Assembly (NCBI GenBank): GCA_017499595.2
Contig: CM039004.1
Span: 1-64,000 of the forward strand
Direction: 5' to 3'
Source of the DNA: Psilocybe cubensis
Taxonomy: Eukaryota
Length of the DNA: 64,000 nt
Both the position numbers and the translations under genes were made by a program. The notes beneath the pieces were generated by a model. The model was not told where the DNA came from. It saw only the letters and a list, made by a program, of their open reading frames with translations, and made no database searches. Below are positions 2,826-60,296 of the stretch, in pieces (position 1 is the first letter of the stretch; each line of letters opens with the position of its first letter).

Positions 2826-3233
2826 TCCATTTAACTCACAGTTTAAACAAGTCGCTCGCACCTCGCTTCGCTCGGTGCTCGCTCCCCCCCTAAACCCTAA
2901 ACCCTAAACCCTTCACCCATAATTCTGGATACTAATTACTATTCTAATTACCCAGACTTTGTCTGGCCAGAATTCGTCCAAGGCTCCTCAACCTCAGGCC
3001 AAGAAAGCTGGCCCTTCGAAATTCAAACCCTCGTCGACGCCTTCGCAGAAGAAGCCCCAAACCAAGGCTTCCAACAAGGTCGACAACAAGAAGAAAGGGA
3101 AGGGGAGAGCTCCCGTCAAGAACGATCCAAAGGGAAAGGGAAAGGCAAGAGCCTAGACGCGCGGTCTAATGTAGTACCTTTTACGTCGGTAAGACCCGCC
3201 TTCCCCAACTCTATTCCTGACGATATACTCACC

Positions 3234-5531
3234 ATGACTAAAACAGACGCAGTTTCTTTTGTACACTTACATACGCCGATCTCATTCTTGTTGGCTGGCC
3301 AGTATCGTAGTAGTGTACACTGTAGTCCTGGTGTGGTGGTCCCTGTAGATATAGCAAATGATTTGTCACTCGGACTCAATTATATGTTTTTTACTCTGCC
3401 TTCTCAAAGTCTGATCATGCAAGCATGGAATGATTTTCAACGAAGAATAAGATGGCGTATCTATTTTTTGTTTAAGGAAGGCATGAACAAACCTTTTGAT
3501 CCAGATTACGGAGTAAGCTCAAAAAAGAAAGAGAAACCTCCAGTATTACCGCAATACATGGAACTTGGCCTTTCGATGGGACGTCGGTACGTGCAACGCA
3601 CGATCGCAAGTATCCCGGAAGAAGCCCTTACGGAGATGCGAAAGCACGCGTTCTCTCCTAAAAGGGACAAGATCCGTAAGTTTCTTATCGATAACAACTA
3701 TGTTATTACGATGACAGATAAGAATCTTGGCCTCGCGGTGTCTGAACGCGACTGGATATTAAGGAATGAGCTCAATCTTCTTGAAGATGAACGTAACTAT
3801 GAAGAGTTAGAATTCGAAGTTGCGCAAGAAGTAATGAAGAGCAAAATGATCCAGATGCAAACTCTTGCACGTACCGTCGAAGATGAACATCTGTTTCTAT
3901 TTGAACTTGGGTTGTCTCGATTCTTTCTATCGAATGTACCGGAAGACGGATCATCGTTCAAGTATCCTCAATTTCATGGTATACCTAAAATCCACAAAAA
4001 ACCTACTGGATTTAGGCCCATAATTCCGTGTCACTCTGTAGTATTTAATCCTGCAGCCAAGTTTGTATCAAAAGAGCTTAAGCCGATTATTAAATCGACT
4101 CCTTCAATCATTCACGGAACGAAGGATCTCTTTACGAGATTAAGCCAATTGCGTATAGACCCCAAACGACAATGGTATTTTGTCACCGGGGATGTAGTTG
4201 CTTTCTATCCCAATATTCCGTTGGACTTGTGCATCGAAATCGTTTGTAATATGTACGAGGAATGGTTACTCAACGCTTCGGAAGAAAACACTGCATTAGC
4301 CCATATTAATCCAAATTCGTTAGAGAATAACTTGGTTAAATTGGGCATCTTTAAACGTGCTATCGAGATTGGCAATACGCAATTGATAACACAACATGGG
4401 TCTAGATATTTTAGACAAAAAAATGGCCTCGCAATGGGCGTCGCGGATTCTCCGGACCTTGCTAACCTCTTTGGAGCCCATTTTGAAATAAAGTCAAAAA
4501 TCTTAGACCACCCAAACGTGGCCTTCTATGGAAGGTACATCGACGATTGTTTCGCAATTGTTTACGCCGAGTCCGAAGCACTTGCACTTAATCTTATTAA
4601 AGAAACAATAAAGTTCGATGGTTGTGTTATCGAATGGGCTGTTTCCTCGTCGGGATGTCAATTTCTCGATGCTTTCATATTCAAGGAGTCTGGAAAACTT
4701 CATTGGAAGCCATTTGTCAAGACAGGAAACAACCGAGAACGAGTTCCATGGGTATCACATCATCCTTTGGACGTCAAACGTGGCGTCTACATTGGAGAGT
4801 TATCCAGGTTAGCCGTGCTATGTAGTACCAAGGAAATCTACATCGGAGCAATTAGAGACCTTAACGCTCTCTATTTGATGCGCGGTTATCCCGAAAACCT
4901 AGTCATGTCTTGGTGTAAGAAGAATATACAAGAACGTTGGGAAAAGCGATTCGCTTTACGAGTCGCAGAGCACGACGAATCCATTCTTGTACTTAAAACC
5001 AGATTTGATCAGGTATGGAATTGGTTTTCAGCTGCTGAACTTGGAAAAACTGTTACCGAGTACTGGTCGGCATGGTATGAACATGCCGAGAAAGGTTTGT
5101 ATAGTGCAGACTCGTCCAGACCCCTTATCAAACCAGATCCAAATTACGTTCACGACCTCGATGATGTTCGCCCGGAGCTGTTCACACAGATCCTCGTGGA
5201 CGGAGAAACTGAGTTCGTACCGGATTTGAGGAAGATAGGACTACTCGGAAGTCGTTGGATAGTATCGCGAAAACGCAATACTAATCTTTTCGACCTTGCA
5301 AATGTGTGGAAGAAAACAGTCTTTCGTAAACTGGATGAAGACATCGCTGAAAAAGGTGGTGTTGTTCCCGAAACTCAAAACGTTAATGAAACTTATCATT
5401 CTGCTTTAGTTGAAGCTGCTGAACAGATAAGTATCGAAAGTGATAACGAGATAATACTTCATAGACGTTCAATCTCACAAGAGAGGGAACATCCAGAATT
5501 CGGCAGAATATCCAAATCTTACAACCGATGA
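3234..5531 (+). CDS. PLE reverse transcriptase (RT part of a truncated ORF)
   Basis: 765-aa ORF with the same RT motifs as A1. Confidence 0.9.
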   Translation: MTKTDAVSFVHLHTPISFLLAGQYRSSVHCSPGVVVPVDIANDLSLGLNYMFFTLPSQSLIMQAWNDFQRRIRWRIYFLFKEGMNKPFDPDYGVSSKKKEKPPVLPQYMELGLSMGRRYVQRTIASIPEEALTEMRKHAFSPKRDKIRKFLIDNNYVITMTDKNLGLAVSERDWILRNELNLLEDERNYEELEFEVAQEVMKSKMIQMQTLARTVEDEHLFLFELGLSRFFLSNVPEDGSSFKYPQFHGIPKIHKKPTGFRPIIPCHSVVFNPAAKFVSKELKPIIKSTPSIIHGTKDLFTRLSQLRIDPKRQWYFVTGDVVAFYPNIPLDLCIEIVCNMYEEWLLNASEENTALAHINPNSLENNLVKLGIFKRAIEIGNTQLITQHGSRYFRQKNGLAMGVADSPDLANLFGAHFEIKSKILDHPNVAFYGRYIDDCFAIVYAESEALALNLIKETIKFDGCVIEWAVSSSGCQFLDAFIFKESGKLHWKPFVKTGNNRERVPWVSHHPLDVKRGVYIGELSRLAVLCSTKEIYIGAIRDLNALYLMRGYPENLVMSWCKKNIQERWEKRFALRVAEHDESILVLKTRFDQVWNWFSAAELGKTVTEYWSAWYEHAEKGLYSADSSRPLIKPDPNYVHDLDDVRPELFTQILVDGETEFVPDLRKIGLLGSRWIVSRKRNTNLFDLANVWKKTVFRKLDEDIAEKGGVVPETQNVNETYHSALVEAAEQISIESDNEIILHRRSISQEREHPEFGRISKSYNR

Positions 5532-6234
5532 AAAGAATACTAGCGCGTAAGGCGTAAAGCATTAGAAAAAAACCCTAACCGTAAGTATTCCTTGCTACAA
5601 AGTAACAAACATCTACTTACAAGCAACACATTGGATTAAATAGCTAAACCTAAACCTAAACCCTAAACCCTAAACCCTAAGCCCTAACCTAACCCCAACC
5701 CTAAGCTAACTAAGTCTAACCTTAGTAGGAAGTAAGGTAGGCGTGTGAACTTCCGAAAGGCATGTGATTGTGAAGGGCCGGATCTAATTTAGTACATGGG
5801 AAAAGTTACTTAGTACCTCGGGAAAAGTTCCTTAGTACCGTGGAAACATTTTTGATGGACCGGATCATGAACTGTCCAATTAAGATTCACAACAATCAAT
5901 CAATTGATTGTTAGGTAAGGACCCAGGTAAGCTATTTATACTCTTGACATGAGAATATTCCCATGTCACGGTTACTCGGAGCCACGTAACCAGAGTATTT
6001 TATATCCATGTGATTCACATCACAGTCAATAACCCACGATGTCAAAGAACAAAAGTGTTGGATCCACTTTTGACAGGTTACCATGTGCCACATCGACCCG
6101 TGACACTCTGTTCATCAGAGATCTGTCTAACTTGACAATAAACATTGACAGATTTGTGATAGTCGGTAAGATACATGACAGCTGCGCAGCATCACTTCAC
6201 GCGCTGTCATCGGATGTTCCAGAACATTCCTTCT

Positions 6235-6310
6235 AAGAATAGCCACTGAAGAGTCTATAAAGACGAAAGGGCTGGCTGCTGATAACAATCAACAGCCCTC
6301 TGGCCTTCTT
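6235..6310 (+). ncRNA. Hammerhead ribozyme (alpha), cleavage after C6300
   Basis: Same core as 2750-2825. Confidence 0.9.
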
Positions 6311-6960
6311 TCCATTTAACTCACAGTTTAAACAAGTCGCTCGCACCTCGCTTCGCTCGGTGCTCGCTCCCCCCCTAAACCCTAAACCCTAAACCCTAAA
6401 CCCTAACCTAACCCCAACCCTAAGCTAACTAAGTCTAACCTTAGTAGGAAGTAAGGTAGGCGTGTGAACTTCCGAACGGCATGTGATTGTGAAGGGCCGG
6501 ATCTAATTTAGTACATGGGAAAAGTTACTTAGTACTTCGGGAAAAGTTCCTTAGTACCGTGGAAACATTTTTGATGGACCGGATCATGAACTGTCCAATT
6601 AAGATTCACAACAATCAATCATTCTATTGTTTGATTGTTAGGTAAGGACCCAGGTAAGCTATTTATACTCTAGACATGTGAATATTCCCATGTCGCGGTT
6701 ACTCGGAGCCACGTAACCAGAGTAATCTATATCCATGTGATTCACATCACAGTCAATAACCCACGATGTCAAAGAACAAAAGTGTTGGATCCACTTTTGA
6801 CAGGTTACCATGTGCCACATCGACCCGTGACACTCTGTTCATCAGAGACCTGTCTAACTTGACAATAAACATTGACAGATTTGTGATAGTCGGTAAGATA
6901 CATGACAGCTGCGCAGCATCACTTCACGCGCTGTCATCGGATGTCTAGAACATTCCTTCT

Positions 6961-7035
6961 AAGAATAGCCACTGAAGAGTCTATAAAGACGAAAGGGCTG
7001 GTTGTTGGGATCCCCCAACAGCCCTCTGGCCTTCT
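6961..7035 (+). ncRNA. Hammerhead ribozyme (stem III variant beta), cleavage after C7026
   Basis: CTGAAGA GTC..GAC GAAA GGGCTGGTTGTTGGGATCCCCCAACAGCCC TC TGGC. Confidence 0.9.
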
Positions 7036-7140
7036 TTCTATTTCAAACTCACAGTTTAAACTAGTCGCTCGCACCTCGCTTCGCTCGGTGCTCGCTCCCC
7101 CCCCTAAACCCAACGACTTTGCTATCACCCATCAGTTACC

Positions 7141-10100
7141 ATGTCATCCCAATACTCTGCTGCATTCTCTCGTGCCATGTCCCCTACCCTGGACGCACTC
7201 ACCCAGGCCGTCGTCAACAACACTGTCTTCGGCGTCAACGATGAAGCAGGCCGCCATAACGCTCTTATCGACGAGCTGGCCACTGTGGTCATCAAAAAAA
7301 TAGCTGAGTGCCGCTCCGTTGACCAAGTCATAGACTGCGTCTTTTTTGACTATCGTGCTGCCCTCAGGGAGTTTCTCCTCAACCTCGCATCGTGGTGCGA
7401 CAAGAGGGAAACAGTCAAGGCTAGCCTCGAGCGCCTTGAATCTGCCGTTAGCGCAGGCAACACGCCCAATCGCCTTAAGGTGAAGGCACCCGAGTTCCAA
7501 CTTACGAAGGAATTCGCGGATGCCGGGTCAGCGGAGGCTCTTCGAGTCTCCACTACGTTCTCTTCCGCTCGTGATGCCTTCCAAAAGGCAATTAACGACG
7601 GCGCCGTTCAGGCGAAAAAGGACGAGCTGGCTTTTTGGGATGATAAATGCGCGCTCAACTCTTGCTACGAAGCTGCTGCCCTCATCGTTAAGGCAACTTA
7701 CGATGATCGCAAATCCAGCTACAAGCTCCCTGTTTTCTCTACAGACAACAAGGGAGTTCGACGTATAGCAGAGTGGGTAGTGTCTCCGCAAAAGAAAGCC
7801 GAATGCAGTGCGCTGCAAACTATACTGCCGGCGATCTTTTCTCATATCAAACAGATTGTCAACATGCGCCACCGCGCCTTGGCAATTAAGATTGAGAAAA
7901 AGCGGACGACTGCGGCAACAGCCGATGTCGAGATGGCCGATGCGACCAAACCAGGTCCATCGATTCAATCCCTTATTGATAAGGGCTTGAATGCACGTCT
8001 CAAAAAGCTCAACCTTGGATCTGTGGGCAAGAAGGCAAGTTTTCGTAACCCTTCACCCATAATTCTGGACACTAATTATTACTCTAATTACCCAGACTTT
8101 GTCTGGCCAGAATTCGTCCAAGGCTCCTCAACCTCAGGCCAGGAAAGCTGGCCCTTCGAAACCCAAGTCGTCGTCGACGCCTTCGCAGAGGAAGCCTCAA
8201 ACCAAGGCTTCCAACAAGGTCGACAACAAGAAGAAAGGGAAGGGGAGAGCTCCCGTCAAGAACAACGATCCAAAGGGAAAGGGAAAGGCAAGAGCCTAGA
8301 CGCGCGGTCTACTGTAGCATCATTTACGTCGGTGAGACCCGCCTTCCCCAACTCTATTCCTGACGATATACTCACCATGACTAAAACAGACGCAGTTTCT
8401 TTTGTACACCTCAATACCCCGATTTCATTCTTATTGGCTGGCCAGTATAGATCTAGTGTACACTGTAGTCCTGGTGTTTCGGTCCCTGTTGATGTAGCAA
8501 ATGATTTATCTCTTGGACTCAATTATATGTTTTTTACACTGCCTTCTAAAAATCTGATCATGCAAGCATGGAATGATTTTCAACGAAGAATAAGATGGCG
8601 TATCTATTTTTTGTTTAAAGAAGGCATGAATAAACCTTTCGATCCAGACTATGGAGTAAGCTCTAAAAAGAAAGAGAAACCTCCAATGTTACCGCAATTT
8701 ATGGAACTTGGCCTTTCAATGGGACGTCGGTACGTTATTAAAACGATCGCAAGTATCCCGGAAGAAGCCCTTAAAGAGATGCGAAAGCACGCGTTCTCTC
8801 CTAAAAGGGACAAGATCCAAAAGTTTCTTTTCGATAACAACTATGTTATTACGATGACAGATAAGAATCTTGGCCTCGCGGTGTCTGAACGCGACTGGAT
8901 ATTAAGGAATGAGCTCAATCTTCTTGAAGATGAACGCAACTACGAAGAGTTAGAATTCGAAGTTGCGCAAGAAGTTATGAAGAGCAAAATGATTCAGATG
9001 CAAACTCTCGCACGTACCGTCGAAGATGAACATCTGTTTCTATTTGAACTTGGGTTGTCTCGATTCTTTCTATCGAATGTACCGGAAGACGGATCATCGT
9101 TCAAGTATCCTCAATTTCATGGTATACCTAAAATCCACAAGAAACCTACTGGATTTAGGCCCATAATTCCGTGTCACTCTGTAGTATTTAATCCTGCAGC
9201 CAAGTTTGTATCAAAAGAGCTTAAGCCGATTATTAAATCGACTCCTTCAATCATTCACGGAACGAAGGATCTCTTTACGAGATTAAGCCAATTGCGTATA
9301 GACCCCAAACGACAATGGTATTTTGTCACCGGGGATGTAGTTGCTTTCTATCCCAATATTCCGTTGGACTTGTGCATCGAAATCGTTTGTAATATGTACG
9401 AGGAATGGTTACTCAACGCTTCGGAAGAAAACACTGCATTAGCCCATATTAATCCAAATTCGTTAGAGAATAACTTGGTTAAATTGGGCATCTTTAAACG
9501 TGCTATCGAGATTGGCAATACGCAATTGATAACACAACATGGGTCTAGATATTTTAGACAAAAAAATGGCCTCGCAATGGGCGTCGCGGATTCTCCGGAC
9601 CTTGCTAACCTCTTTGGAGCCCATTTTGAAATAAAGTCAAAAATCTTAGACCACCCAAACGTGGCCTTCTATGGAAGGTACATCGACGATTGTTTCGCAA
9701 TTGTTTACGCCGAGTCCGAAGCACTTGCACTTAATCTTATTAAAGAAACAATAAAGTTCGATGGTTGTGTTATCGAATGGGCTGTTTCCTCGTCGGGATG
9801 TCAATTTCTCGATGCTTTCATATTCAAGGAGTCTGGAAAACTTCATTGGAAGCCATTTGTCAAGACAGGAAACAACCGAGAACGAGTTCCATGGGTATCA
9901 CATCATCCTTTGGACGTCAAACGTGGCGTCTACATTGGAGAGTTATCCAGGTTAGCCGTGCTATGTAGTACCAAGGAAATCTACATCGGAGCAATTAGAG
10001 ACCTTAACGCTCTCTATTTGATGCGCGGTTATCCCGAAAACCTAGTCATGTCTTGGTGTAAGAAGAATATACAAGAACGTTGGGAAAAGCGATTCGCTTT

Positions 10101-10674
10101 ACGAGTCGCAGAGCACGACGAATCCATTCTTGTACTTAAAACCAGATTTGATCAGGTATGGAATTGGTTTTCAGCTGCTGAACTTGGAAAGACTGTTACC
10201 GAGTACTGGTCGGCATGGTATGAACATGCCGAGAAAGGTCTGTATAGTGCAGACTCGTCCAGACCCCTTATCAAACCAGATCCAAATTACGTTCACGACC
10301 TCGATGATGTTCGCCCGGAGCTGTTCACACAGATCCTCGTGGACGGAGAAACTGAGTTCGTACCGGATTTGAGGAAGATAGGACTACTCGGAAGTCGTTG
10401 GATAGTATCGCGAAAGCGCAATACTAATCTTTTCGACCTTGCAAATGTGTGGAAGAAAACAGTCTTTCGTAAACTGGATGAAAACATCGCTGAAAAAGGT
10501 GGTGTTGTTCCCGAAACTCAAAACGTTAATGAAACTTATCATTCTGCTCTAGTTGAAGCTGCTGAACAGATAAGTATCGAAAGTGATAACGAGATAATAC
10601 TTCATAGACGTTCAATCTCACAAGAGAGGGAACATCCAGAATTCGGCAGAATATCCAAATCTTACAACCGATGA
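7141..10674 (+). CDS. PLE ORF1-RT polyprotein (1177 aa, unspliced frame)
   Basis: Helical/coiled-coil-like N-terminal ~300 aa followed by the PLE RT domain (DKNLG, GLAMG, YIDD); no endonuclease motif. Confidence 0.9.
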   Translation: MSSQYSAAFSRAMSPTLDALTQAVVNNTVFGVNDEAGRHNALIDELATVVIKKIAECRSVDQVIDCVFFDYRAALREFLLNLASWCDKRETVKASLERLESAVSAGNTPNRLKVKAPEFQLTKEFADAGSAEALRVSTTFSSARDAFQKAINDGAVQAKKDELAFWDDKCALNSCYEAAALIVKATYDDRKSSYKLPVFSTDNKGVRRIAEWVVSPQKKAECSALQTILPAIFSHIKQIVNMRHRALAIKIEKKRTTAATADVEMADATKPGPSIQSLIDKGLNARLKKLNLGSVGKKASFRNPSPIILDTNYYSNYPDFVWPEFVQGSSTSGQESWPFETQVVVDAFAEEASNQGFQQGRQQEEREGESSRQEQRSKGKGKGKSLDARSTVASFTSVRPAFPNSIPDDILTMTKTDAVSFVHLNTPISFLLAGQYRSSVHCSPGVSVPVDVANDLSLGLNYMFFTLPSKNLIMQAWNDFQRRIRWRIYFLFKEGMNKPFDPDYGVSSKKKEKPPMLPQFMELGLSMGRRYVIKTIASIPEEALKEMRKHAFSPKRDKIQKFLFDNNYVITMTDKNLGLAVSERDWILRNELNLLEDERNYEELEFEVAQEVMKSKMIQMQTLARTVEDEHLFLFELGLSRFFLSNVPEDGSSFKYPQFHGIPKIHKKPTGFRPIIPCHSVVFNPAAKFVSKELKPIIKSTPSIIHGTKDLFTRLSQLRIDPKRQWYFVTGDVVAFYPNIPLDLCIEIVCNMYEEWLLNASEENTALAHINPNSLENNLVKLGIFKRAIEIGNTQLITQHGSRYFRQKNGLAMGVADSPDLANLFGAHFEIKSKILDHPNVAFYGRYIDDCFAIVYAESEALALNLIKETIKFDGCVIEWAVSSSGCQFLDAFIFKESGKLHWKPFVKTGNNRERVPWVSHHPLDVKRGVYIGELSRLAVLCSTKEIYIGAIRDLNALYLMRGYPENLVMSWCKKNIQERWEKRFALRVAEHDESILVLKTRFDQVWNWFSAAELGKTVTEYWSAWYEHAEKGLYSADSSRPLIKPDPNYVHDLDDVRPELFTQILVDGETEFVPDLRKIGLLGSRWIVSRKRNTNLFDLANVWKKTVFRKLDENIAEKGGVVPETQNVNETYHSALVEAAEQISIESDNEIILHRRSISQEREHPEFGRISKSYNR
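8035..8095 (+). other. Predicted 61-nt GC-AG spliceosomal intron; splicing joins ORF1 to a Lys-rich tail ending at 8299
   Basis: AAG|GCAAGT donor, CTAAT branch candidates, CCCAG acceptor; phase-0 join is in frame with ORF 8099-8299. Same intron at 13178-13238 and 19257-19317. Confidence 0.7.
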
Positions 10675-11378
10675 AAAGAATACTAGCGCGTAAGGCGTAA
10701 AGCATTAGAAAAAAACCCTAACCGTAAGTATTCCTTGCTATAAAGTAACAAACATCTACTTACAAGCAACACTTTGGATTAAATAGCTAAACCTAAACCC
10801 TAAACCCTAAACCCTAAACCCTAACCTAACCCCAACCCTAAGCTAACTAAGTCTAACCTTAGTAGGAAGTAAGGTAGGCGTGTGAACTTCCGAACGGCAT
10901 GTGATTGTGAAGGGCCGGATCTAATTTAGTACATGGGAAAAGTTACTTAGTACTTCGGGAAAAGTTCCTTAGTACCGTGGAAACATTTTTGATGGACCGG
11001 ATCATGAACTGTCCAATTAAGATTCACAACAATCAATCATTCTATTGTTTGATTGTTAGGTAAGGACCCAGGTAAGCTATTTATACTCTAGACATGTGAA
11101 TATTCCCATGTCGCGGTTACTCGGAGCCACGTAACCAGAGTAATCTATATCCATGTGATTCACATCACAGTCAATAACCCACGATGTCAAAGAACAAAAG
11201 TGTTGGATCCACTTTTGACAGGTTACCATGTGCCACATCGACCCGTGACACTCTGTTCATCAGAGACCTGTCTAACTTGACAATAAACATTGACAGATTT
11301 GTGATAGTCGGTAAGATACATGACAGCTGCGCAGCATCACTTCACGCGCTGTCATCGGATGTCTAGAACATTCCTTCT

Positions 11379-11453
11379 AAGAATAGCCACTGAAGAGTCT
11401 ATAAAGACGAAAGGGCTGGTTGTTGGGATCCCCCAACAGCCCTCTGGCCTTCT
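11379..11453 (+). ncRNA. Hammerhead ribozyme (beta), cleavage after C11444
   Basis: Same core as 6961-7035. Confidence 0.9.
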
Positions 11454-12106
11454 TTCTATTTCAAACTCACAGTTTAAACTAGTCGCTCGCACCTCGCTTC
11501 GCTCGGTGCTCGCTCCCCCCCTAAACCCTAAACCCTAAACCCTAAACCCTAAGCCCTAACCTAACCCCAACCCTAAGCTAACTAAGTCTAACCTTAGTAG
11601 GAAGTAAGGTAGGCGTGTGAACTTCCGAAAGGCATGTGATTGTGAAGGGCCGGATCTAATTTAGTACATGGGAAAAGTTACTTAGTACCTCGGGAAAAGT
11701 TCCTTAGTACCGTGGAAACATTTTTGATGGACCGGATCATGAACTGTCCAATTAAGATTCACAACAATCAATCAATTGATTGTTAGGTAAGGACCCAGGT
11801 AAGCTATTTATACTCTTGACATGAGAATATTCCCATGTCACGGTTACTCGGAGCCACGTAACCAGAGTATTTTATATCCATGTGATTCACATCACAGTCA
11901 ATAACCCACGATGTCAAAGAACAAAAGTGTTGGATCCACTTTTGACAGGTTACCATGTGCCACATCGACCCGTGACACTCTGTTCATCAGAGATCTGTCT
12001 AACTTGACAATAAACATTGACAGATTTGTGATAGTCGGTAAGATACATGACAGCTGCGCAGCATCACTTCACGCGCTGTCATCGGATGTTCCAGAACATT
12101 CCTTCT

Positions 12107-12182
12107 AAGAATAGCCACTGAAGAGTCTATAAAGACGAAAGGGCTGGCTGCTGATAACAATCAACAGCCCTCTGGCCTTCTT
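12107..12182 (+). ncRNA. Hammerhead ribozyme (alpha), cleavage after C12172
   Basis: Same core as 2750-2825. Confidence 0.9.
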
Positions 12183-12283
12183 TCCATTTAACTCACAGTT
12201 TAAACAAGTCGCTCGCACCTCGCTTCGCTCGGTGCTCGCTCCCCCCCTAAACCCAACGACTTTGCTATTACCCAACAGCTACT

Positions 12284-15200
12284 ATGTCTTCCACTTACTC
12301 TGCTGCCTTCTCTCGTGCCATGTCCCCCACCCTGGACGCACTCACCCAGGCTGTCGTCAACAACACAGTTTTTGGCGTCAACGACGAAGCTGGCCGCCAC
12401 AACGCCCTCATCGACGAGTTGGCCACTGTCGTCATCAAGAAAATAGCTGAGTGCCGCTCCATTGACCAGATTGTAGACTGCGTCTTTTTTGACTATCGTG
12501 CTGCCCTTAGGGAGTTTCTCCTCAACCTCGCATCGTGGTGCGATAAGAGGGAAACAGTCAAGGCTAGCCTCGAGCGCCTTGAACTTGCCGTTAGCGCAGG
12601 CAACACCCCCAATCGCCTTCGGGTGAAGGCTCCCGAGTTCCAACTTACGAAGGAATTCGCGGATGCCGGGTCAGCGGAAGCTCTTCGAGTTTCCTCTACG
12701 TTCTCCACCGCTCGTGATGTCTTCCAAAAGGCAATCAACGACGGCGCCATTCAGGCGAAAAAGGACGAACTGGCCTTTTGGGATGATAAATGCGCACTCA
12801 ATAACTGTTATGAAGCTGCTGCCCTCATCGTTAAGACAACTTACGATGATCGCAAATCCAGCTATAAGCTCCCCGTTTTCTCTACAGACAACAAGGGAGT
12901 TCGTCGAATAACAGATTGGGTAGTGTCACCGCAGAAGAAGGCTGAATGCAGCGCATTGCAAACCATTTTGCCAGCCATCTTCTCTCATATCAAACAGATT
13001 GTCAACTTGCGCCACCGCGCTTTGGCAATCAAGATTGAGAAAAAGCGGTCGACTGCGGCAACAGCCGATGTCGAGATGGCCGATGCGACCAAACCAGGTC
13101 CATCGATTCAATCCCTTATTGATAAGGGCTTGAATGCACGTCTCAAGAAGCTCAACCTTGGATCTGTGGGCAAGAAGGCAAGTTCTCGTAACCCTTCACC
13201 CATAATTCTGGATACTAATTACTATTCTAATTACCCAGACTTTGTCTGGCCAGAATTCGTCCAAGGCTCCTCAACCTCAGGCCAAGAAAGCTGGCCCTTC
13301 GAAATTCAAACCCTCGTCGACGCCTTCGCAGAAGAAGCCCCAAACCAAGGCTTCCAACAAGGTCGACAACAAGAAGAAAGGGAAGGGGAGAGCTCCCGTC
13401 AAGAACGATCCAAAGGGAAAGGGAAAGGCAAGAGCCTAGACGCGCGGTCTAATGTAGTACCTTTTACGTCGGTAAGACCCGCCTTCCCCAACTCTATTCC
13501 TGACGATATACTCACCATGACTAAAACAGACGCAGTTTCTTTTGTACACTTACATACGCCGATCTCATTCTTGTTGGCTGGCCAGTATCGTAGTAGTGTA
13601 CACTGTAGTCCTGGTGTGGTGGTCCCTGTAGATATAGCAAATGATTTGTCACTCGGACTCAATTATATGTTTTTTACTCTGCCTTCTCAAAGTCTGATCA
13701 TGCAAGCATGGAATGATTTTCAACGAAGAATAAGATGGCGTATCTATTTTTTGTTTAAGGAAGGCATGAACAAACCTTTTGATCCAGATTACGGAGTAAG
13801 CTCAAAAAAGAAAGAGAAACCTCCAGTATTACCGCAATACATGGAACTTGGCCTTTCGATGGGACGTCGGTACGTGCAACGCACGATCGCAAGTATCCCG
13901 GAAGAAGCCCTTACGGAGATGCGAAAGCACGCGTTCTCTCCTAAAAGGGACAAGATCCGTAAGTTTCTTATCGATAACAACTATGTTATTACGATGACAG
14001 ATAAGAATCTTGGCCTCGCGGTGTCTGAACGCGACTGGATATTAAGGAATGAGCTCAATCTTCTTGAAGATGAACGTAACTATGAAGAGTTAGAATTCGA
14101 AGTTGCGCAAGAAGTAATGAAGAGCAAAATGATCCAGATGCAAACTCTTGCACGTACCGTCGAAGATGAACATCTGTTTCTATTTGAACTTGGGTTGTCT
14201 CGATTCTTTCTATCGAATGTACCGGAAGACGGATCATCGTTCAAGTATCCTCAATTTCATGGTATACCTAAAATCCACAAAAAACCTACTGGATTTAGAC
14301 CCATAATTCCGTGTCACTCTGTAGTATTTAATCCTGCAGCCAAGTTTGTATCAAAAGAGCTTAAGCCGATTATTAAATCGACTCCTTCAATCATTCACGG
14401 AACGAAGGATCTCTTTACGAGATTAAGCCAATTGCGTATAGACCCCAAACGACAATGGTATTTTGTCACCGGGGATGTAGTTGCTTTCTATCCCAATATT
14501 CCGTTGGACTTGTGCATCGAAATCGTTTGTAATATGTACGAGGAATGGTTACTCAACGCTTCGGAAGAAAACACTGCATTAGCCCATATTAATCCAAATT
14601 CGTTAGAGAATAACTTGGTTAAATTGGGCATCTTTAAACGTGCTATCGAGATTGGCAATACGCAATTGATAACACAACATGGGTCTAGATATTTTAGACA
14701 AAAAAATGGCCTCGCAATGGGCGTCGCGGATTCTCCGGACCTTGCTAACCTCTTTGGAGCCCATTTTGAAATAAAGTCAAAAATCTTAGACCACCCAAAC
14801 GTGGCCTTCTATGGAAGGTACATCGACGATTGTTTCGCAATTGTTTACGCCGAGTCCGAAGCACTTGCACTTAATCTTATTAAAGAAACAATAAAGTTCG
14901 ATGGTTGTGTTATCGAATGGGCTGTTTCCTCGTCGGGATGTCAATTTCTCGATGCTTTCATATTCAAGGAGTCTGGAAAACTTCATTGGAAGCCATTTGT
15001 CAAGACAGGAAACAACCGAGAACGAGTTCCATGGGTATCACATCATCCTTTGGACGTCAAACGTGGCGTCTACATTGGAGAGTTATCCAGGTTAGCCGTG
15101 CTATGTAGTACCAAGGAAATCTACATCGGAGCAATTAGAGACCTTAACGCTCTCTATTTGATGCGCGGTTATCCCGAAAACCTAGTCATGTCTTGGTGTA

Positions 15201-15814
15201 AGAAGAATATACAAGAACGTTGGGAAAAGCGATTCGCTTTACGAGTCGCAGAGCACGACGAATCCATTCTTGTACTTAAAACCAGATTTGATCAGGTATG
15301 GAATTGGTTTTCAGCTGCTGAACTTGGAAAAACTGTTACCGAGTACTGGTCGGCATGGTATGAACATGCCGAGAAAGGTTTGTATAGTGCAGACTCGTCC
15401 AGACCCCTTATCAAACCAGATCCAAATTACGTTCACGACCTCGATGATGTTCGCCCGGAGCTGTTCACACAGATCCTCGTGGACGGAGAAACTGAGTTCG
15501 TACCGGATTTGAGGAAGATAGGACTACTCGGAAGTCGTTGGATAGTATCGCGAAAACGCAATACTAATCTTTTCGACCTTACAAATGTGTGGAAGAAAAC
15601 AGTCTTTCGTAAACTGGATGAAGACATCGCTGAAAAAGGTGGTGTTGTTCCCGAAACTCAAAACGTTAATGAAACTTATCATTCTGCTTTAGTTGAAGCT
15701 GCTGAACAGATAAGTATCGAAAGTGATAACGAGATAATACTTCATAGACGTTCAATCTCACAAGAGAGGGAACATCCAGAATTCGGCAGAATATCCAAAT
15801 CTTACAACCGATGA
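12284..15814 (+). CDS. PLE ORF1-RT polyprotein (1176 aa)
   Basis: Intact ORF, paralog of 7141-10674. Confidence 0.9.
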   Translation: MSSTYSAAFSRAMSPTLDALTQAVVNNTVFGVNDEAGRHNALIDELATVVIKKIAECRSIDQIVDCVFFDYRAALREFLLNLASWCDKRETVKASLERLELAVSAGNTPNRLRVKAPEFQLTKEFADAGSAEALRVSSTFSTARDVFQKAINDGAIQAKKDELAFWDDKCALNNCYEAAALIVKTTYDDRKSSYKLPVFSTDNKGVRRITDWVVSPQKKAECSALQTILPAIFSHIKQIVNLRHRALAIKIEKKRSTAATADVEMADATKPGPSIQSLIDKGLNARLKKLNLGSVGKKASSRNPSPIILDTNYYSNYPDFVWPEFVQGSSTSGQESWPFEIQTLVDAFAEEAPNQGFQQGRQQEEREGESSRQERSKGKGKGKSLDARSNVVPFTSVRPAFPNSIPDDILTMTKTDAVSFVHLHTPISFLLAGQYRSSVHCSPGVVVPVDIANDLSLGLNYMFFTLPSQSLIMQAWNDFQRRIRWRIYFLFKEGMNKPFDPDYGVSSKKKEKPPVLPQYMELGLSMGRRYVQRTIASIPEEALTEMRKHAFSPKRDKIRKFLIDNNYVITMTDKNLGLAVSERDWILRNELNLLEDERNYEELEFEVAQEVMKSKMIQMQTLARTVEDEHLFLFELGLSRFFLSNVPEDGSSFKYPQFHGIPKIHKKPTGFRPIIPCHSVVFNPAAKFVSKELKPIIKSTPSIIHGTKDLFTRLSQLRIDPKRQWYFVTGDVVAFYPNIPLDLCIEIVCNMYEEWLLNASEENTALAHINPNSLENNLVKLGIFKRAIEIGNTQLITQHGSRYFRQKNGLAMGVADSPDLANLFGAHFEIKSKILDHPNVAFYGRYIDDCFAIVYAESEALALNLIKETIKFDGCVIEWAVSSSGCQFLDAFIFKESGKLHWKPFVKTGNNRERVPWVSHHPLDVKRGVYIGELSRLAVLCSTKEIYIGAIRDLNALYLMRGYPENLVMSWCKKNIQERWEKRFALRVAEHDESILVLKTRFDQVWNWFSAAELGKTVTEYWSAWYEHAEKGLYSADSSRPLIKPDPNYVHDLDDVRPELFTQILVDGETEFVPDLRKIGLLGSRWIVSRKRNTNLFDLTNVWKKTVFRKLDEDIAEKGGVVPETQNVNETYHSALVEAAEQISIESDNEIILHRRSISQEREHPEFGRISKSYNR

Positions 15815-16517
15815 AAAGAATACTAGCGCGTAAGGCGTAAAGCATTAGAAAAAAACCCTAACCGTAAGTATTCCTTGCTACAAAGTAACAAACATCTACT
15901 TACAAGCAACACATTGGATTAAATAGCTAAACCTAAACCTAAACCCTAAACCCTAAACCCTAAGCCCTAACCTAACCCCAACCCTAAGCTAACTAAGTCT
16001 AACCTTAGTAGGAAGTAAGGTAGGCGTGTGAACTTCCGAAAGGCATGTGATTGTGAAGGGCCGGATCTAATTTAGTACATGGGAAAAGTTACTTAGTACC
16101 TCGGGAAAAGTTCCTTAGTACCGTGGAAACATTTTTGATGGACCGGATCATGAACTGTCCAATTAAGATTCACAACAATCAATCAATTGATTGTTAGGTA
16201 AGGACCCAGGTAAGCTATTTATACTCTTGACATGAGAATATTCCCATGTCACGGTTACTCGGAGCCACGTAACCAGAGTATTTTATATCCATGTGATTCA
16301 CATCACAGTCAATAACCCACGATGTCAAAGAACAAAAGTGTTGGATCCACTTTTGACAGGTTACCATGTGCCACATCGACCCGTGACACTCTGTTCATCA
16401 GAGATCTGTCTAACTTGACAATAAACATTGACAGATTTGTGATAGTCGGTAAGATACATGACAGCTGCGCAGCATCACTTCACGCGCTGTCATCGGATGT
16501 TCCAGAACATTCCTTCT

Positions 16518-17257: not shown

Positions 17258-18262
17258 AAGAATAGCCACTGAAGAGTCTATAAAGACGAAAGGGCTGGTT
17301 GTTGGGATCCCCCAACAGCCCTCAAGTACTCGTCCTCTCCCAAACTCCTGCCGCTTGTGCCTTCCCAACTCATCCGGGAGCCCTTTCGTCACTGATCTTG
17401 CCCTTGACTCGGGGACGTTTCATCGACATGTTGGCTGCCTCACGGCAAGCGGGGCCCTTTTTCTTTCACTCGCTCACGCCTTCTATGTTGGGTTACGGAG
17501 GTCATACAAACTCGTTTTAGTCTAGCTGCGGGGATATCCAGCTATGATGACTTTGTAATTCGAGGGCGCGCAGTTCTTCAATGGGTATGGACATCAGGTG
17601 AGAGTACACTGGGGGTTGTCAGGACCAGCTCTGCTGGATACGCTCCTGGCAAGTCGGTTGCAGCCGGCGACACTACCGAATTGCTGGGACGTCCTAAAGC
17701 TTGTGGGTACCGCCGACCGCTGGAAACAGCCTAGGCACCGGTGGCGACCGGGTATGGTAACAATCCCCAAGATTCAGCGAAAGCTGGAATGGATAATCAG
17801 CAGCGAATCCGTAACGGTCACGCCGACGGAAGCGTTCAACGACTAGGTGGTAGTGGGGTCTTCGGATCTTAAGATATAGTCTTGGGAGTGGGGAAACCCA
17901 CATCTGGTATCTAAACCGCGCCTCGCTGCTTACGAGGACGGCCCGAAGTCCAGAACCGCTTAAAACGCGGGTGACCCGGCCTCCCCTTAGTAAAGGGAGT
18001 TAACACAAGGATGGACAAATAGTTCGTCGCCGGAAATGAACCTGTGGCTGTAATGGCTGATGTGGCGCCCCTTGGTAAAGGGCTTAAAGGGTATTAGCCT
18101 GCCATGTCCAATGGCATGAGAGTGTCCCTTGGTAAAGGACTTAATAGGCAATAGCCTGCTCTTTTGTCATGAGCGGTATGTAGTGATCGTTTGCCTGTAC
18201 GGTAGCGCCCATTGCTTGCACTGGTCCACGCCCGTAAAAAATCACGAGCCGCTGGCTACTTT
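17258..18262 (+). ncRNA. Hammerhead ribozyme (beta) split by a group I intron between the U and C of its cleavage triplet
   Basis: 5' part CTGAAGA...GAAAGGGCTG...CAGCCCT ends at 17322; 3' part CTGGCTACTTTCC resumes at 18252; joining them reproduces 22604-22680. Confidence 0.88.
17323..18251 (+). ncRNA. Group I self-splicing intron (IC1-like), no homing endonuclease ORF evident
   Basis: P GAATTGCTGGGA (17678-17689), Q AATCAGCAGC (17795-17804), R GTTCAACGACTAG (17834-17846), S TAAGATATAGTC (17870-17881); P3 CACTACC/GGTAGTG; P8 with UUCG loop; P9 GTGGGGAAACCCAC; 5' exon ends in U, intron ends in G; IGS GGGGTTGT (17612-17619) pairs with exon ACAGCCCT. Confidence 0.88.
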
Positions 18263-18362
18263 CCATTTAACTCCCAGTTTAAACTAGTCGCTCGCACCTC
18301 GCTTCGCTCGGTGCTCGCTCCCCCCCTAAACCCAACGACTTTGCTATTATCCATCAGCCACT

Positions 18363-21300
18363 ATGTCATCTCAATACTCTGCTGCTTTCTCTCGTGCCAT
18401 GTCCCCCACCCTGGACGCACTCACCCAGGCCGTCGTCAACAACACCGTTTTCGGCGTCAACGATGAAGCAGGCCGCCATAACGCTCTGATCGACGAGCTG
18501 GCCACTGTGGTCATCAAAAAAATAGCTGAGTGCCGCTCCGTTGACCAAGTCATAGACTGCGTCTTTTTTGACTATCGTGCTGCCCTTAGGGAGTTTCTCC
18601 TCAACCTCGCATCGTGGTGCGATAAGAGGGAAACAGTCAAGGCTAGCCTCGAGCGCCTTGAATCTGCCGTTAGCGCAGGCAACACGCCCAATCGCCTTAA
18701 GGTGAAGGCACCCGAGTTCCAACTTACGAAGGAATTCGCGAATGCCGGGTCAGCGGAGGCTCTTCGAGTCTCCACTACGTTCTCTACCGCTCGTGACGCC
18801 TTCCAAAAGGCAATTAACGACGGCGCCATTCAGGCGAAAAAGGACGAGCTGACTTTTTGGGATGATAAATGCGCACTCAACTCTTGCTACGAAGCTGCTG
18901 CCCTCATCGTTAAGGCAACTTACGATGATCGCAAATCCAGCTACAAGCTCCCTGTTTTCTCTACAGATAACAAGGGAGTTCGACGTATAGCAGAGTGGGT
19001 AGTGTCTCCGCAAAAGAAAGCCGAATGCAGTGCGCTGCAAACCATACTGCCGGCGATCTTTTCTCACATCAAACAAATTGTCAACATGCGCCACCGCGCT
19101 TTGGCAATTAAGATTGAGAAAAAGCGGACGACTGCGGCAACAGCCGATGTCGAGATGGCCGACGCGACCAAACCAGGTCCGTCGATTCAATCCCTTATTG
19201 ATAAGGGCTTGAATGCACGTCTCAAGAAGCTCAACCTTGGATCTGTGGGCAAGAAGGCAAGTTTTCGTAACCCTTCACCCATAATTCTGGATACTAATTA
19301 CTACTCTAATTACCCAGACTTTGTCTGGCCAGAATTCATCCAAGGCTCCTCAACCTCAGGCCAAGAAAGCTGGCCCTTCGAAACCCAAGTCGTCGTCGAC
19401 GCCTTCGCAACGCAAGCCTCAAACCAAGGCTTCCAACAAGGTCGACAACAAGAAGAAAGGGAAGGGGAGAGCTCCCGTCAAGAACGATCCAAAGGGAAAG
19501 GGAAAGGCAAGAGCCTAGATGCGCGGTCTAATGTAGTACCTTTTACGTCGGTGAGACCCGCCTTCCCCAACTCTATTCCTGACGATATACTCACCATGAC
19601 TAAAACAGACGCAGTTTCTTTCGTACACTTACATACTCCAATATCATTCTTGTTGGCTGGCCAGTATCGTAGTAGTGTACATTGTAGTCCTGGTGTTTCT
19701 GTCCCTGTTGATGTAGCAAACGATCTCTCTCTCGGACTTAATTATATGTTTTTCACTCTGCCTTCTAAAAGTCTGATCATGCAAGCATGGAATGATTTCC
19801 AACGAAGAATAAGATGGCGTATCTATTTTTTGTTTAAGGAAGGCATGAATAAACCTTTTGATCCAGATTATGGAGTAAGCTCAAAAAAGAAAGAGAAACC
19901 TCCTGTATTACCGCAATATATGGAACTTGGCCTTTCGATGGGACGTCGGTACGTGCAACGCACGATCGCAAGTATCCCGGAAGAAGCCCTTACGGAGATG
20001 CGAAAGCACGCGTTCTCTCCTAAAAGGGACAAGATCCGTAAGTTTCTTATCGATAACAACTATGTTATTACGATGACAGATAAGAATCTTGGCCTCGCGG
20101 TGTCTGAACGCGACTGGATATTAAGGAATGAGCTCAATCTTCTTGAAGATGAACGTAATTACGAAGAGTTAGAATTCGAAGTTGCGCAAGAAGTTATGAA
20201 GAGCAAAATGATTCAGATGCAAACGCTCGCACGTACTGTCGAAGATGAACATCTGTTTCTATTTGAACTTGGGTTGTCTCGATTCTTTCTATCGAATGTA
20301 CCGGAAGACGGATCATCGTTCAAGTATCCTCAATTTCATGGTATACCTAAAATCCACAAGAAACCTACTGGATTTAGGCCCATAATTCCGTGTCACTCTG
20401 TAGTATTTAATCCTGCAGCCAAGTTTGTATCAAAAGAGCTTAAGCCGATTATTAAATCGACTCCTTCAATCATACACGGAACGAAGGATCTCTTTACGAG
20501 ATTAAGCCAATTGCGTATAGACTCCAAAAGACAATGGTATTTTGTCACTGGAGATGTAGTTGCTTTCTATCCCAATATTCCGTTGGACTTGTGCATCGAA
20601 ATCGTTTGTAGTATGTACGAGGAATGGTTACTCAACGCTTCGGAAGAAAACACTGCATTAGCCCATATTAATCCAAATTCGTTAGAGAATAACTTGGTTA
20701 AATTGGGCATCTTTAAACGTGCTATCGAGATTGGCAATACGCAATTGATAACACAACATGGGTCTAGATATTTTAGACAAAAAAATGGCCTCGCAATGGG
20801 CGTCGCGGATTCTCCGGACCTTGCTAACCTCTTTGGAGCCCATTTTGAAATAAAGTCAAAAATCTTAGACCACCCAAACGTGGCCTTCTATGGAAGGTAC
20901 ATCGACGATTGTTTCGCAATTGTTTACGCCGAGTCCGAAGCACTTGCACTTAATCTTATTAAAGAAACAATAAAGTTCGATGGTTGTGTTATCGAATGGG
21001 CTGTTTCCTCGTCGGGATGTCAATTTCTCGATGCTTTCATATTCAAGGAGTCTGGAAAACTTCATTGGAAGCCTTTTGTCAAGACAGGAAACAACCGAGA
21101 ACGAGTTCCATGGGTATCACATCATCCTTTGGACGTCAAACGTGGCGTCTACATTGGAGAGTTATCCAGGTTAGCCGTGCTATGTAGTACCAAGGAAATC
21201 TACATCGGAGCAATTAGAGACCTTAACGCTCTCTATTTGATGCGCGGTTATCCCGAAAACCTAGTCATATCTTGGTGTAAGAAGAATATACAAGAACGTT

Positions 21301-21893
21301 GGGAAAAGCGATTCGCTTTACGAGTCGCAGAGCACGACGAATCCATTCTTGTACTTAAAACCAGATTTGATCAGGTATGGAATTGGTTTTCAGCTGCTGA
21401 ACTTGGAAAAACTGTTACCGAGTACTGGTCGGCATGGTATGAACATGCCGAGAAAGGTTTGTATAGTGCAGACTCGTCCAGACCCCTTATCAAACCAGAT
21501 CCAAATTACGTTCACGACCTCGATGATGTTCGCCCGGAGCTGTTCACACAGATCCTCGTGGACGGAGAAACTGAGTTCGTACCGGATTTGAGGAAGATAG
21601 GACTACTCGGAAGTCGTTGGATAGTATCGCGAAAACGCAATACTAATCTTTTCGACCTTGCAAATGTGTGGAAGAAAACAGTCTTTCGTAAACTGGATGA
21701 AGACATCGCTGAAAAAGGTGGTGTTGTTCCCGAAACTCAAAACGTTAATGAAACTTATCATTCTGCTTTAGTTGAAGCTGCTGAGCAGATAAGTATCGAA
21801 AGTGATAACGAGATAATACTTCATAGACGTTCAATCTCACAAGAGAGGGAACATCCAGAATTTGGCAGAATATCCAAATCTTACAACCGATGA
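18363..21893 (+). CDS. PLE ORF1-RT polyprotein (1176 aa)
   Basis: Intact ORF, paralog of 7141-10674. Confidence 0.9.
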   Translation: MSSQYSAAFSRAMSPTLDALTQAVVNNTVFGVNDEAGRHNALIDELATVVIKKIAECRSVDQVIDCVFFDYRAALREFLLNLASWCDKRETVKASLERLESAVSAGNTPNRLKVKAPEFQLTKEFANAGSAEALRVSTTFSTARDAFQKAINDGAIQAKKDELTFWDDKCALNSCYEAAALIVKATYDDRKSSYKLPVFSTDNKGVRRIAEWVVSPQKKAECSALQTILPAIFSHIKQIVNMRHRALAIKIEKKRTTAATADVEMADATKPGPSIQSLIDKGLNARLKKLNLGSVGKKASFRNPSPIILDTNYYSNYPDFVWPEFIQGSSTSGQESWPFETQVVVDAFATQASNQGFQQGRQQEEREGESSRQERSKGKGKGKSLDARSNVVPFTSVRPAFPNSIPDDILTMTKTDAVSFVHLHTPISFLLAGQYRSSVHCSPGVSVPVDVANDLSLGLNYMFFTLPSKSLIMQAWNDFQRRIRWRIYFLFKEGMNKPFDPDYGVSSKKKEKPPVLPQYMELGLSMGRRYVQRTIASIPEEALTEMRKHAFSPKRDKIRKFLIDNNYVITMTDKNLGLAVSERDWILRNELNLLEDERNYEELEFEVAQEVMKSKMIQMQTLARTVEDEHLFLFELGLSRFFLSNVPEDGSSFKYPQFHGIPKIHKKPTGFRPIIPCHSVVFNPAAKFVSKELKPIIKSTPSIIHGTKDLFTRLSQLRIDSKRQWYFVTGDVVAFYPNIPLDLCIEIVCSMYEEWLLNASEENTALAHINPNSLENNLVKLGIFKRAIEIGNTQLITQHGSRYFRQKNGLAMGVADSPDLANLFGAHFEIKSKILDHPNVAFYGRYIDDCFAIVYAESEALALNLIKETIKFDGCVIEWAVSSSGCQFLDAFIFKESGKLHWKPFVKTGNNRERVPWVSHHPLDVKRGVYIGELSRLAVLCSTKEIYIGAIRDLNALYLMRGYPENLVISWCKKNIQERWEKRFALRVAEHDESILVLKTRFDQVWNWFSAAELGKTVTEYWSAWYEHAEKGLYSADSSRPLIKPDPNYVHDLDDVRPELFTQILVDGETEFVPDLRKIGLLGSRWIVSRKRNTNLFDLANVWKKTVFRKLDEDIAEKGGVVPETQNVNETYHSALVEAAEQISIESDNEIILHRRSISQEREHPEFGRISKSYNR

Positions 21894-22603
21894 AAAGAAT
21901 ACTAGCGCTTAAGGCGTAAAGCATTAGAAAAAAACCCTAACCGTAAGTATTCCTTGCTATAAAGTAACAAACATCTACTTACAAGCAACACATTGGATTG
22001 AATAGCTAAACCTAAACCTAAACCCTAAACCCTAAACCCTAAACCCTAACCTAACCCCAACCCTAAGCTAACTAAGTCTAACCTTAGTAGGAAGTAAGGT
22101 AGGCGTGTGAACTTCCGAACGGCATGTGATTGTGAAGGGCCGGATCTAATTTAGTACATGGGAAAAGTTACTTAGTACTTCGGGAAAAGTTCCTTAGTAC
22201 CGTGGAAACATTTTTGATGGACCGGATCATGAACTGTCCAATTAAGATTCACAACAATCAATCATTCTATTGTTTGATTGTTAGGTAAGGACCCAGGTAA
22301 GTTATTTATACTCTAGACATGTGAATATTCCCATGTCGCGGTTACTCGGAGCCACGTAACCAGAGTAATCTATATCCATGTGATTCACATCACAGTCAAT
22401 AACCCACGATGTCAAAGAACAAAAGTGTTGGATCCACTTTTGACAGGTTACCATGTGCCACATCGACCCGTGACACTCTGTTCATCAGAGACCTGTCTAA
22501 CTTGACAATAAACATTGACAGATTTGTGATAGTCGGTAAGATACATGACAGCTGCGCAGCATCACTTCACGCGCTGTCATCGGATGTCTAGAACATTCCT
22601 TCT

Positions 22604-27500: not shown

Positions 27501-27732
27501 ATGGGTGGCATTGAGCTGGCGGAAATCGCTCCGCAGAGTCGTATATTGCATCGGAAGCTATGTATTTCTCGAGTAGATGTAAACCTGACAATCTTGTTTA
27601 AACAAATACTTCGATCCGTACGTTGACAATCCAGCACTCGCCTGTGTCCTTCCCCGGTCCGTAGATATTCTGCGTCTGAATGAAGTTCCCTCCATTGATC
27701 ATTAGGTTGTGTGCGTCAGGAAACTGCTGCAT
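24541..27732 (-). pseudogene. Fungal NACHT-domain NLR-like gene with an in-frame premature stop
   Basis: Exon 1 MQQFPDAHNLMINGGNFIQTQN from 27732; CHPCTRE..I..W, Walker A LWLYGPAGSGKS, Walker B VIIDGLDEC, SRPE, SASGQFVYA, LDQLY motifs; TAG at 27127-27129 lies between two ORFs in the same frame; 3' exon boundaries approximate. Confidence 0.8.
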
Positions 27733-60276: not shown

Positions 60277-60296
60277 AACCCTAAAACCCTAAACCC

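Follow-up and report, generated by a model that had tools for sequence, protein, structure and literature searches.

A candidate retained intron as a likely switch between an ORF1 protein with a basic tail and an ORF1-reverse transcriptase fusion in a Coprina-type Penelope-like element of Psilocybe cubensis

Penelope-like elements (PLEs) are the closest retroelement relatives of telomerase and are unusual in keeping introns after retrotransposition, a trait whose significance was given as unknown in the text of a 2021 review (PMC8557442). Among other retroelements, the barley Ty1/copia element BARE1 has been described as carrying a facultative intron of 104 nucleotides (nt) (Chang et al. 2013, PMC3735527). 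Within the PLEs, Coprina elements are presented in the text of PMC13159263 as having a single open reading frame (ORF), and the ascomycete element Coprina-1_Alen as having two separate ORFs. Here we report on the first 64,000 nt of contig CM039004.1 of Psilocybe cubensis (GenBank assembly GCA_017499595.2; hereafter the window), which hold an array of Coprina-type PLEs. In these elements, we think it likely on comparative grounds that the retention or removal of a short candidate intron switches the product between a fusion of ORF1 with the reverse transcriptase (RT) and an ORF1 protein with a basic tail. The features on which the argument turns are as follows.

7141-8034 (+): ORF1 body of copy A, common to both products (298 codons, from translation)
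8035-8095 (+): intron candidate of copy A, GCAAGT...CTAAT...CAG, with a stop-free main frame
8096-8299 (+): dual-coding overlap of copy A, with the tail and its TAG in the +1 frame and an acidic linker in the main frame
7141-10674 (+): coding sequence of the predicted ORF1-RT fusion of copy A, stop included, on the unspliced reading (1177 amino acids, aa)
8299-10671 (+): RT part of copy A, with DKN motif, RT core with YIDD, and thumb (AlphaFold predicted local distance difference test, pLDDT, 72; 23-row alignment)
13178-13238 (+): intron candidate of copy B, between ORF1 (12284-13177) and tail (13239-13439)
19257-19317 (+): intron candidate of copy C, between ORF1 (18363-19256) and tail (19318-19518)
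2888-3156 (+): telomere-like repeat and a 5'-truncated copy starting within the intron, with the intron remnant running to 2955 and an intact tail frame at 2956-3156
60847-61210 (+): corresponding region of a second Coprina family (ORF 60232-63651), 38% identical to the first

The 61-nt candidate of copy A lies directly 3' of two lysine codons (AAG AAG) and reads GCAAGT ... ACTAAT ... TCTAAT ... CCCAG on the forward strand. It is a phase 0 GC-AG candidate without a main-frame stop, and its length leaves a remainder of one when divided by three (1 mod 3). Read unspliced, the main frame is open from stop to stop over 7108-10674 (1188 codons), with its first methionine at 7141, giving 1177 aa; with the 61 nt removed, ORF1 would continue at 8096 in the +1 frame for a further 67 residues, from TLSGQNSS to KGKGKARA, up to a TAG at 8297-8299. 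An earlier note on this DNA had claimed a stop-free 61-nt GC-AG candidate, a 1177-aa ORF1-RT protein upon its retention and a lysine-rich frame ending KGKGKARA with a stop at 8299 upon its removal; each could be read directly, in the intron at 8035-8095, the open main frame at 7141-10674 and the 67-codon translation from 8096, and the junctions that it named for two further copies are exact. It had also held the tail to be open in copies A2 to A5: this stands for the three full copies and one truncated copy, but four copies carry the region, not five. Exact junction patterns occur three and four times in the window, against none expected by chance. An alternative donor in copy A, GTGGGC at 8023, lies 12 nt upstream of the GC and would give a 73-nt intron; the candidates for the donor used in P. 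cubensis are GC 8035 and GT 8023, which would yield the same frame.

Relatives were collected by scanning metagenome contigs with two RT peptide patterns, independently of ORF continuity, which yielded 30 loci. The 21-locus set used below is made up of the 18 metagenome loci that span the end of ORF1 and the start of the RT, together with three window copies; outside its counts are L015 and L018, L004, which starts after the intron, and L010, L016, L017, L029 and L030, which fall short of the junction. Throughout the set, the genomic frame of ORF1 is also that of the RT and no stop intervenes, and a phase 0 donor directly after the two lysine codons is followed 49, 55, 58 or 61 nt on by a YAG acceptor, so that any two length classes are a multiple of three apart. 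Donor sequences are GTAAGA, GTGAGT, GTAAGT, GTTAGT, GTACGA, GTGCGC, GTGAAT and GTGAGC, with GCAAGT found only in the window copies. Although the acceptor was first defined as a suitable AG at a 1 mod 3 length from a fixed donor, it was re-checked without the frame condition, and 20 of the 21 loci were found to have no AG between intron position 20 and the acceptor (in the exception, L002, the AG falls within a branch-like CTAAG); the 1 mod 3 length class is therefore an observation. In a 16-row alignment of 100 nt of intron and flank, only the AA preceding the donor, G+1 and the AG of the acceptor are invariant, with T+2 and G+5 nearly so. Most loci have a branch-like sequence of the CTAAT/CTAAC type (CTRAY) about 20 nt upstream of the acceptor. 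Splice signals, both reading frames and the length class are all conserved.

The same arrangement recurs at greater distances. Four loci of a deep clade, at 24-32% identity, have an aligned 61-nt GT...CTGAC...YAG candidate in phase 1; in one of them, L027, the script ranked first a GC donor 12 nt upstream, which gives 73 nt. An intron candidate at the same place, 49-61 nt long and 1 mod 3, is present in 22 of the 24 junction-spanning metagenome relatives. The second Coprina family in the window, which directly follows a truncated copy of the first, has a 55-nt candidate, GTCAGT...CAG, at 60847-60901, followed at 60902-61210 by a 102-aa basic tail in the +1 frame.

The bases just 3' of the acceptor (8096-8110, and the aligned places in L001 to L012) read GTCTGGCC(C/A)G and are unusually well conserved. 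They encode VWPE in one frame and SGP or SGQ in the other, and their conservation goes beyond the apparent need of either protein frame; they could be a splicing enhancer or could simply reflect dual-coding constraint.

Across the 21 loci, the +1 frame is open for 57-73 codons after the acceptor, with an end rich in lysine and glycine and a stop just before the conserved RT N-terminus. The tails contain 28-39% lysine plus arginine and have isoelectric points of 10.4-11.9 (28% and 11.7 in copy A), and the acidic linker read from the main frame has an isoelectric point of 4.9 in copy A and of 4.3-8.1 across loci. When single-base differences were classified in seven phylogenetically separate pairs, those in the overlap that were synonymous in the tail frame only outnumbered those synonymous in the main frame only by 114:45, a share of 0.717 versus 0.530 expected (binomial p 2e-6); the same ratio was 57:176 over the adjoining 240 nt on the ORF1 side and 66:161 over the adjoining 240 nt on the RT side. 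Selection therefore changes over to the tail frame exactly where the two frames overlap. The closest pairs were the clearest for the tail frame (11:0 and 16:2).

The main frame, too, is maintained. When synonymous codons were resampled according to each locus's own usage under a constant tail protein (2000 trials), the main frame stayed open in a fraction of 0.000-0.034 of trials per locus over the 21 loci; introns that had been shuffled were stop-free in 0.35-0.80 of trials each, and all observed introns are stop-free. Constraint on the alternative frame, which the earlier note had called for, is thus seen in the substitution test, and constraint on the main frame in its being open against expectation. 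Since the tail frame is favoured in the overlap and the main frame is kept open, both predicted products are under selection. The translation of copy A contains no main-frame methionine between the intron and the RT start, so main-frame translation must begin in ORF1 and yield a fusion. Internal initiation of the RT was considered and rejected, as there is no methionine from the intron to the RT start and the main frame is nonetheless kept open. Taken together, these comparisons support the view that the putative intron, the lysine-rich frame and the in-frame read-through are each conserved and selected in relatives at 24-70% protein identity.

We propose that a full copy represents one genomic ORF, comprising ORF1 and a telomerase-like RT, that is interrupted by a short spliceosomal intron. 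Removal of the intron would shift the ribosome into a lysine- and arginine-rich frame of 57-102 codons that stops just before the RT, giving an ORF1 protein of about 365 aa with a helical body and a basic tail, which probably binds nucleic acid. Upon retention, the ribosome would read through the intron and the overlap, as an acidic linker, into the RT to make the 1177-aa fusion. Some 200 nt would in this way encode a basic tail in an abundant ORF1 protein and an acidic linker in a rare fusion, and the efficiency of splicing would set the ORF1:RT ratio, that is, the ratio of structural protein to enzyme, as for Gag and Gag-Pol in long terminal repeat (LTR) elements. In fungi, alternative splicing commonly takes the form of intron retention, and splicing from a GC donor should be weaker. 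We infer that the intron is spliced, that only part of the RNA undergoes this, and that the RT favours its own unspliced RNA as a template. The RT would be encoded by the intron-retaining RNA alone and would act on the RNA that encoded it, copying it into DNA at chromosome ends; because only unspliced RNA would both encode the RT and be copied, the intron would be kept in each new copy. Whether such a splice-gated dual-coding switch is the ancestral expression strategy of fungal Coprina elements, and the functional reason for their intron retention, is a wider claim for which we judge the chances to be even.

The proposal that unspliced RNA serves as the template, also made earlier, is favoured by the genomic copies themselves. 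Every copy examined keeps the intron, and one is 5'-truncated inside it, which implies that unspliced RNA was reverse-transcribed at least once. In two DNA-like sequencing runs the element is present at high depth with its intron, one contig being gapless over 7907-8141, and the DNA-like contigs of these two runs contain no 61- or 73-nt joint.

Both kinds of product also occur among public gene models. Databases were searched separately with the tail and with the ORF1 body, and models made up of ORF1 and tail, 331-369 aa long and all named 'hypothetical' or 'uncharacterized', were found in at least ten Agaricomycete species, among them Psilocybe cubensis, P. cyanescens, P. cf. subviscida, Hypholoma sublateritium, Plicaturopsis crispa, Mycena metata, M. 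maculata, Mucidula mucida, Trametes versicolor and Lenzites betulinus. In P. cubensis one cluster has 10 listed members with many accessions, and one fragment is labelled 'Histone H1' by UniRef. In the models from Hypholoma and P. cf. subviscida, the join falls exactly behind the two lysines. Those of P. cubensis join four codons earlier, with GS followed directly by TLSGQ (361 versus 365 aa), which points to the GT at 8023 as a possible donor for a 73-nt intron, likewise 1 mod 3. Fusion-type P. cubensis models, of 1080-1081 aa and 1176 aa, retain the 61 nt. Thus both products are already in the databases, unlinked. The NCBI P. cubensis models of 1080-1081 aa, P0003 and P0004, keep the intron and skip 97 conserved residues at the RT N-terminus, which looks like a gene-prediction artefact.

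Several points weigh against the proposed switch. No sequencing run recorded as RNA was found to contain the element, and two possible RNA runs, X4 and X5, gave one contig each, covering only 7021-7103, and are uninformative on expression or splicing. The gene models that join ORF1 to the tail may be purely ab initio and are for that reason not independent proof of splicing. The donor in the window copies is of the rare GC class and the public P. cubensis models take the upstream GT, leaving the junction unsettled. Few samples supplied the metagenome loci, which are only partly independent of one another, the distant pairs in the substitution test align at only 57-68% nucleotide identity, and two partial, degenerate loci, L015 and L018, have the +1 tail with no clean intron and with stops upstream. 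Finally, at its end the tail sequence of the window copies has two G_GGA_AAG heptamers in register.

These heptamers would suit a different scheme, in which splicing is constitutive and the RT is made from spliced RNA by -1 frameshifting near the tail end. A -1 slip out of the tail frame, which is +1 to that of the RT, would restore the RT frame; tandem in-register GGGAAAG/AAAGGGA heptamers lie 19-28 nt before the tail stop in the window copies, L001 and L002; and the legend to Fig. 1 of PMC8557442 mentions PLE types in which ORF1 is set apart by a frameshift with a pseudoknot. However, only 11 of the 21 loci have a heptamer in register within 30 nt of the tail stop, the other 10 having none there, and the K-G-K-G-K motif is encoded in varying codon phases, a sign that what is conserved is the protein. 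Frameshifting close to the end of the tail does not need a main frame open through the intron and the whole overlap, and spliced-only expression imposes no constraint by which intron lengths would vary by multiples of three only. Nor do the 113 nt downstream of the heptamers fold unusually well (z-score +0.88, with 165 of 200 shuffles folding at least as well, pseudoknots being outside the model). We consider this scheme unlikely.

A reading without any splicing, in which the tail frame is reached by +1 ribosomal frameshifting on unspliced RNA or is translated separately, would account for purifying selection on the tail frame and for spliced RNA not having been seen. We regard it as less probable still, since the +1 frame has stops within the intron in most loci, leaving a short window for a slip, and lacks a conserved start codon, while the invariant bases are exactly the splice-site dinucleotides and most loci combine a branch-like CTRAY about 20 nt before the acceptor with an AG-free interval. 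The simplest alternative, that the element makes a single long fusion only and that sequence composition produces both the open +1 frame and the signals resembling an intron, fits the description of Coprina as single-ORF elements (PMC13159263, text) and the fact that lysine-rich and glutamate-rich frames can mirror each other. It is hard to credit, given that selection flips to the +1 frame inside the overlap only, that the +1 stop occurs at the same place before the RT N-terminus in 21 of 21 loci, in the deep clade and in the second family, and that the main-frame residues of the overlap are the least conserved part of a 17-protein alignment. Partial splicing of the intron remains our preferred explanation.

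The element in question is an endonuclease-lacking PLE of the Coprina type with a telomerase-like RT. Full copies lie at 6301-11100, 11445-16238 and 18249-22325, and 5'-truncated copies at 206-2470, 2907-5955 and 57918-59855, of which 206-2470 and 57918-59855 start downstream of the intron and tail region. They make up a head-to-tail array of six copies, with ten copies of a repeated 3' region of about 730 nt; the tandem or partly tandem layout with repeated terminal regions is as in endonuclease-deficient PLEs. The closest proteins are from P. cubensis itself, at 98-99% identity (the fusion is 98% identical to a 1176-aa UniRef protein), and the protein-atlas neighbours are basidiomycete and rotifer clusters. 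The translation contains TMTDKNLG and YIDD, and DKN is invariant in 17- and 23-row alignments; a DKN motif upstream of the RT core, the RT motifs and the thumb are named as typical for PLEs in the text of PMC13159263. When the RT model was compared with the PDB using Foldseek, the top 12 matches were all telomerase RTs (E 7e-9 to 1e-6), which outranked group II intron, retron and LINE-1 RTs. The template modelling (TM) scores of the RT model were low, at 0.29-0.36, so that the evidence is the ranking of the matches, not superposition, and its last 70 or so residues are modelled as disordered.

Pfam returned no family for the 1188-residue translation at E<=0.1, and RVT_1 was found in three of 17 aligned homologues and not in the window protein. 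GIY-YIG was not found by Pfam in the window protein, nor among the nine families found in the 17 homologues, an absence that is weak evidence because Pfam missed the RT too. A PDB sequence search with the window protein gave no matches, and a PDB profile search gave weak RT matches only (E 0.21 and 0.93). The AlphaFold model of ORF1 (7141-8034; 18-row alignment, pLDDT 80.6) consists of long helices and one beta hairpin; ORF1 matched no Pfam family and, by Foldseek, nothing in the PDB at E<=0.001.

The repeated 3' regions and the ends of the copies carry further signals. In endonuclease-deficient PLEs, features of these parts are a hammerhead ribozyme motif beside the terminal repeats and reverse-complement telomeric repeats that lie at element ends and cap 5'-truncated copies. 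An Rfam scan found no hammerhead at the gathering score, only the following matches below that threshold (25.3 and 23.0 bits, respectively, against 56.3).

11365-11449 (+): hammerhead-like motif
12093-12177 (+): hammerhead-like motif

A hammerhead-like core, CUGAAGAG...GACGAAA, is visible in the alignment, with one motif per copy of the repeat of about 730 nt, and the motifs shortly precede the telomere-like end of each repeat unit. Element 3' ends finish in CCCCCCCTAAACCC (seen at 18322-18335). The sequence (CCCTAAA)3CCC at 2888-2911 lies directly 5' of a truncated copy, and at 7103 and 7114 DNA contigs have loose ends with the sequences TAAACCCTAAA and CCCTAAACCC. The telomere unit expected for a basidiomycete is the 6-mer CCCTAA, unlike the 7-mer CCCTAAA seen here, and a dimer of the canonical telomeric 6-mer has no exact match in the window. 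The 7-mer could have its template in the element or could be the telomere unit of the host.

Elsewhere in the window, 17607-17903 (+) matches the Rfam model of the group I catalytic intron over its full length (RF00028; 70.9 bits, gathering score 50, E 5.6e-16) and sits in an insert of about 940 nt that separates the repeated 3' region of one copy from the start of copy C. No ribosomal RNA was detected anywhere in the window, and a sequence like a group I ribozyme outside ribosomal DNA, inside a retroelement array, is odd. An intact-looking Ty1/copia polyprotein frame of 1783 codons at 31621-36972 (-) matches Retrotran_gag_2, gag_pre-integrs, rve and RVT_2 (E 2.9e-67). At 24541-27597 (-) there is a possible decayed NACHT-type gene, seen as a run of four open frames (156-341 codons), one of which matches NPHP3_N weakly (25.7 bits, cut-off 24.8; E 1.4e-5).

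If the proposed switch is right, the candidate job of the intron would be to choose between a structural protein and a fusion of that protein with the RT, and intron retention in PLEs would gain a selective, not merely mechanistic, explanation for the Coprina clade, within which the design of intron and tail is conserved from 24% to 99% protein identity. The question of intron retention would become directly testable in culturable mushrooms, and dozens of unlinked 'hypothetical protein' models in Agaricomycete genomes would be explained. A telomere-targeting element of the non-LTR type would join the few retroelements that set the ratio of a Gag-like protein to Pol by splicing and not by ribosomal frameshifting, and would offer a natural example of a dual-coding overlap of 60-100 codons whose frames are selected by the spliceosome.

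In its general features the element resembles the Coprina and Athena PLEs, as described in the text of PMC8557442 (Craig et al. 2021) and PMC13159263, in its telomerase-like RT with DKN, the lack of GIY-YIG and a helical or coiled N-terminal ORF1, as well as in 3' direct repeats and 5'-truncated copies, and possibly in telomere-like repeats at junctions. In the text of the literature searched on Coprina and on Athena/Terminons, neither a frame-shifting retained intron nor a dual-coding tail was found described; 'conserved introns' are mentioned in the legend to Fig. 1 of PMC8557442, and that figure could already show this one. As in the PLE intron retention reported by Arkhipova et al., the intron here survives retrotransposition. 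The introns studied in Penelope and Chlamys-3 lie in the 5' untranslated region over the promoter, whereas the present one is within the coding region and would change the product.

Gag/pol expression by -1 or +1 frameshifting likewise yields a short structural protein and a rarer fusion from a two-frame overlap, but here the proposed change of frame is made by the spliceosome, not by the ribosome, and no slippery site is conserved. In Drosophila copia (as cited in PMC3735527) and in the Arabidopsis Ty1/copia element EVD (Oberlin et al. 2017, PMC5580714), alternative splicing produces a Gag-only message and an excess of structural over catalytic protein; the introns concerned take out pol wholly or in large part (2950 nt in copia) or act together with premature termination, whereas just 49-61 nt would be removed here, leaving the RNA nearly full length. 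The closest parallel is BARE1, which, on the published text (PMC3735527), also has a single genomic ORF of the gag-pol type, from which removal of a small intron shifts the frame and whose unspliced RNA gives the polyprotein; its spliced RNA encodes the structural protein only and is avoided by replication. BARE1 is an LTR element with Gag, protease and integrase, domains of which Pfam found none in the proteins of the window element, itself Penelope-like with a telomerase-like RT. Splicing of BARE1 was shown by reverse transcription-polymerase chain reaction, while that proposed here is read from sequence. The shifted frame of BARE1 stops after three residues, whereas here it would continue into a conserved basic tail of 57-102 aa that overlaps the linker. 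The element is thus not a member of the splice-regulated Gag/Gag-Pol family but, on the reading preferred here, a Penelope-like element that works like one.

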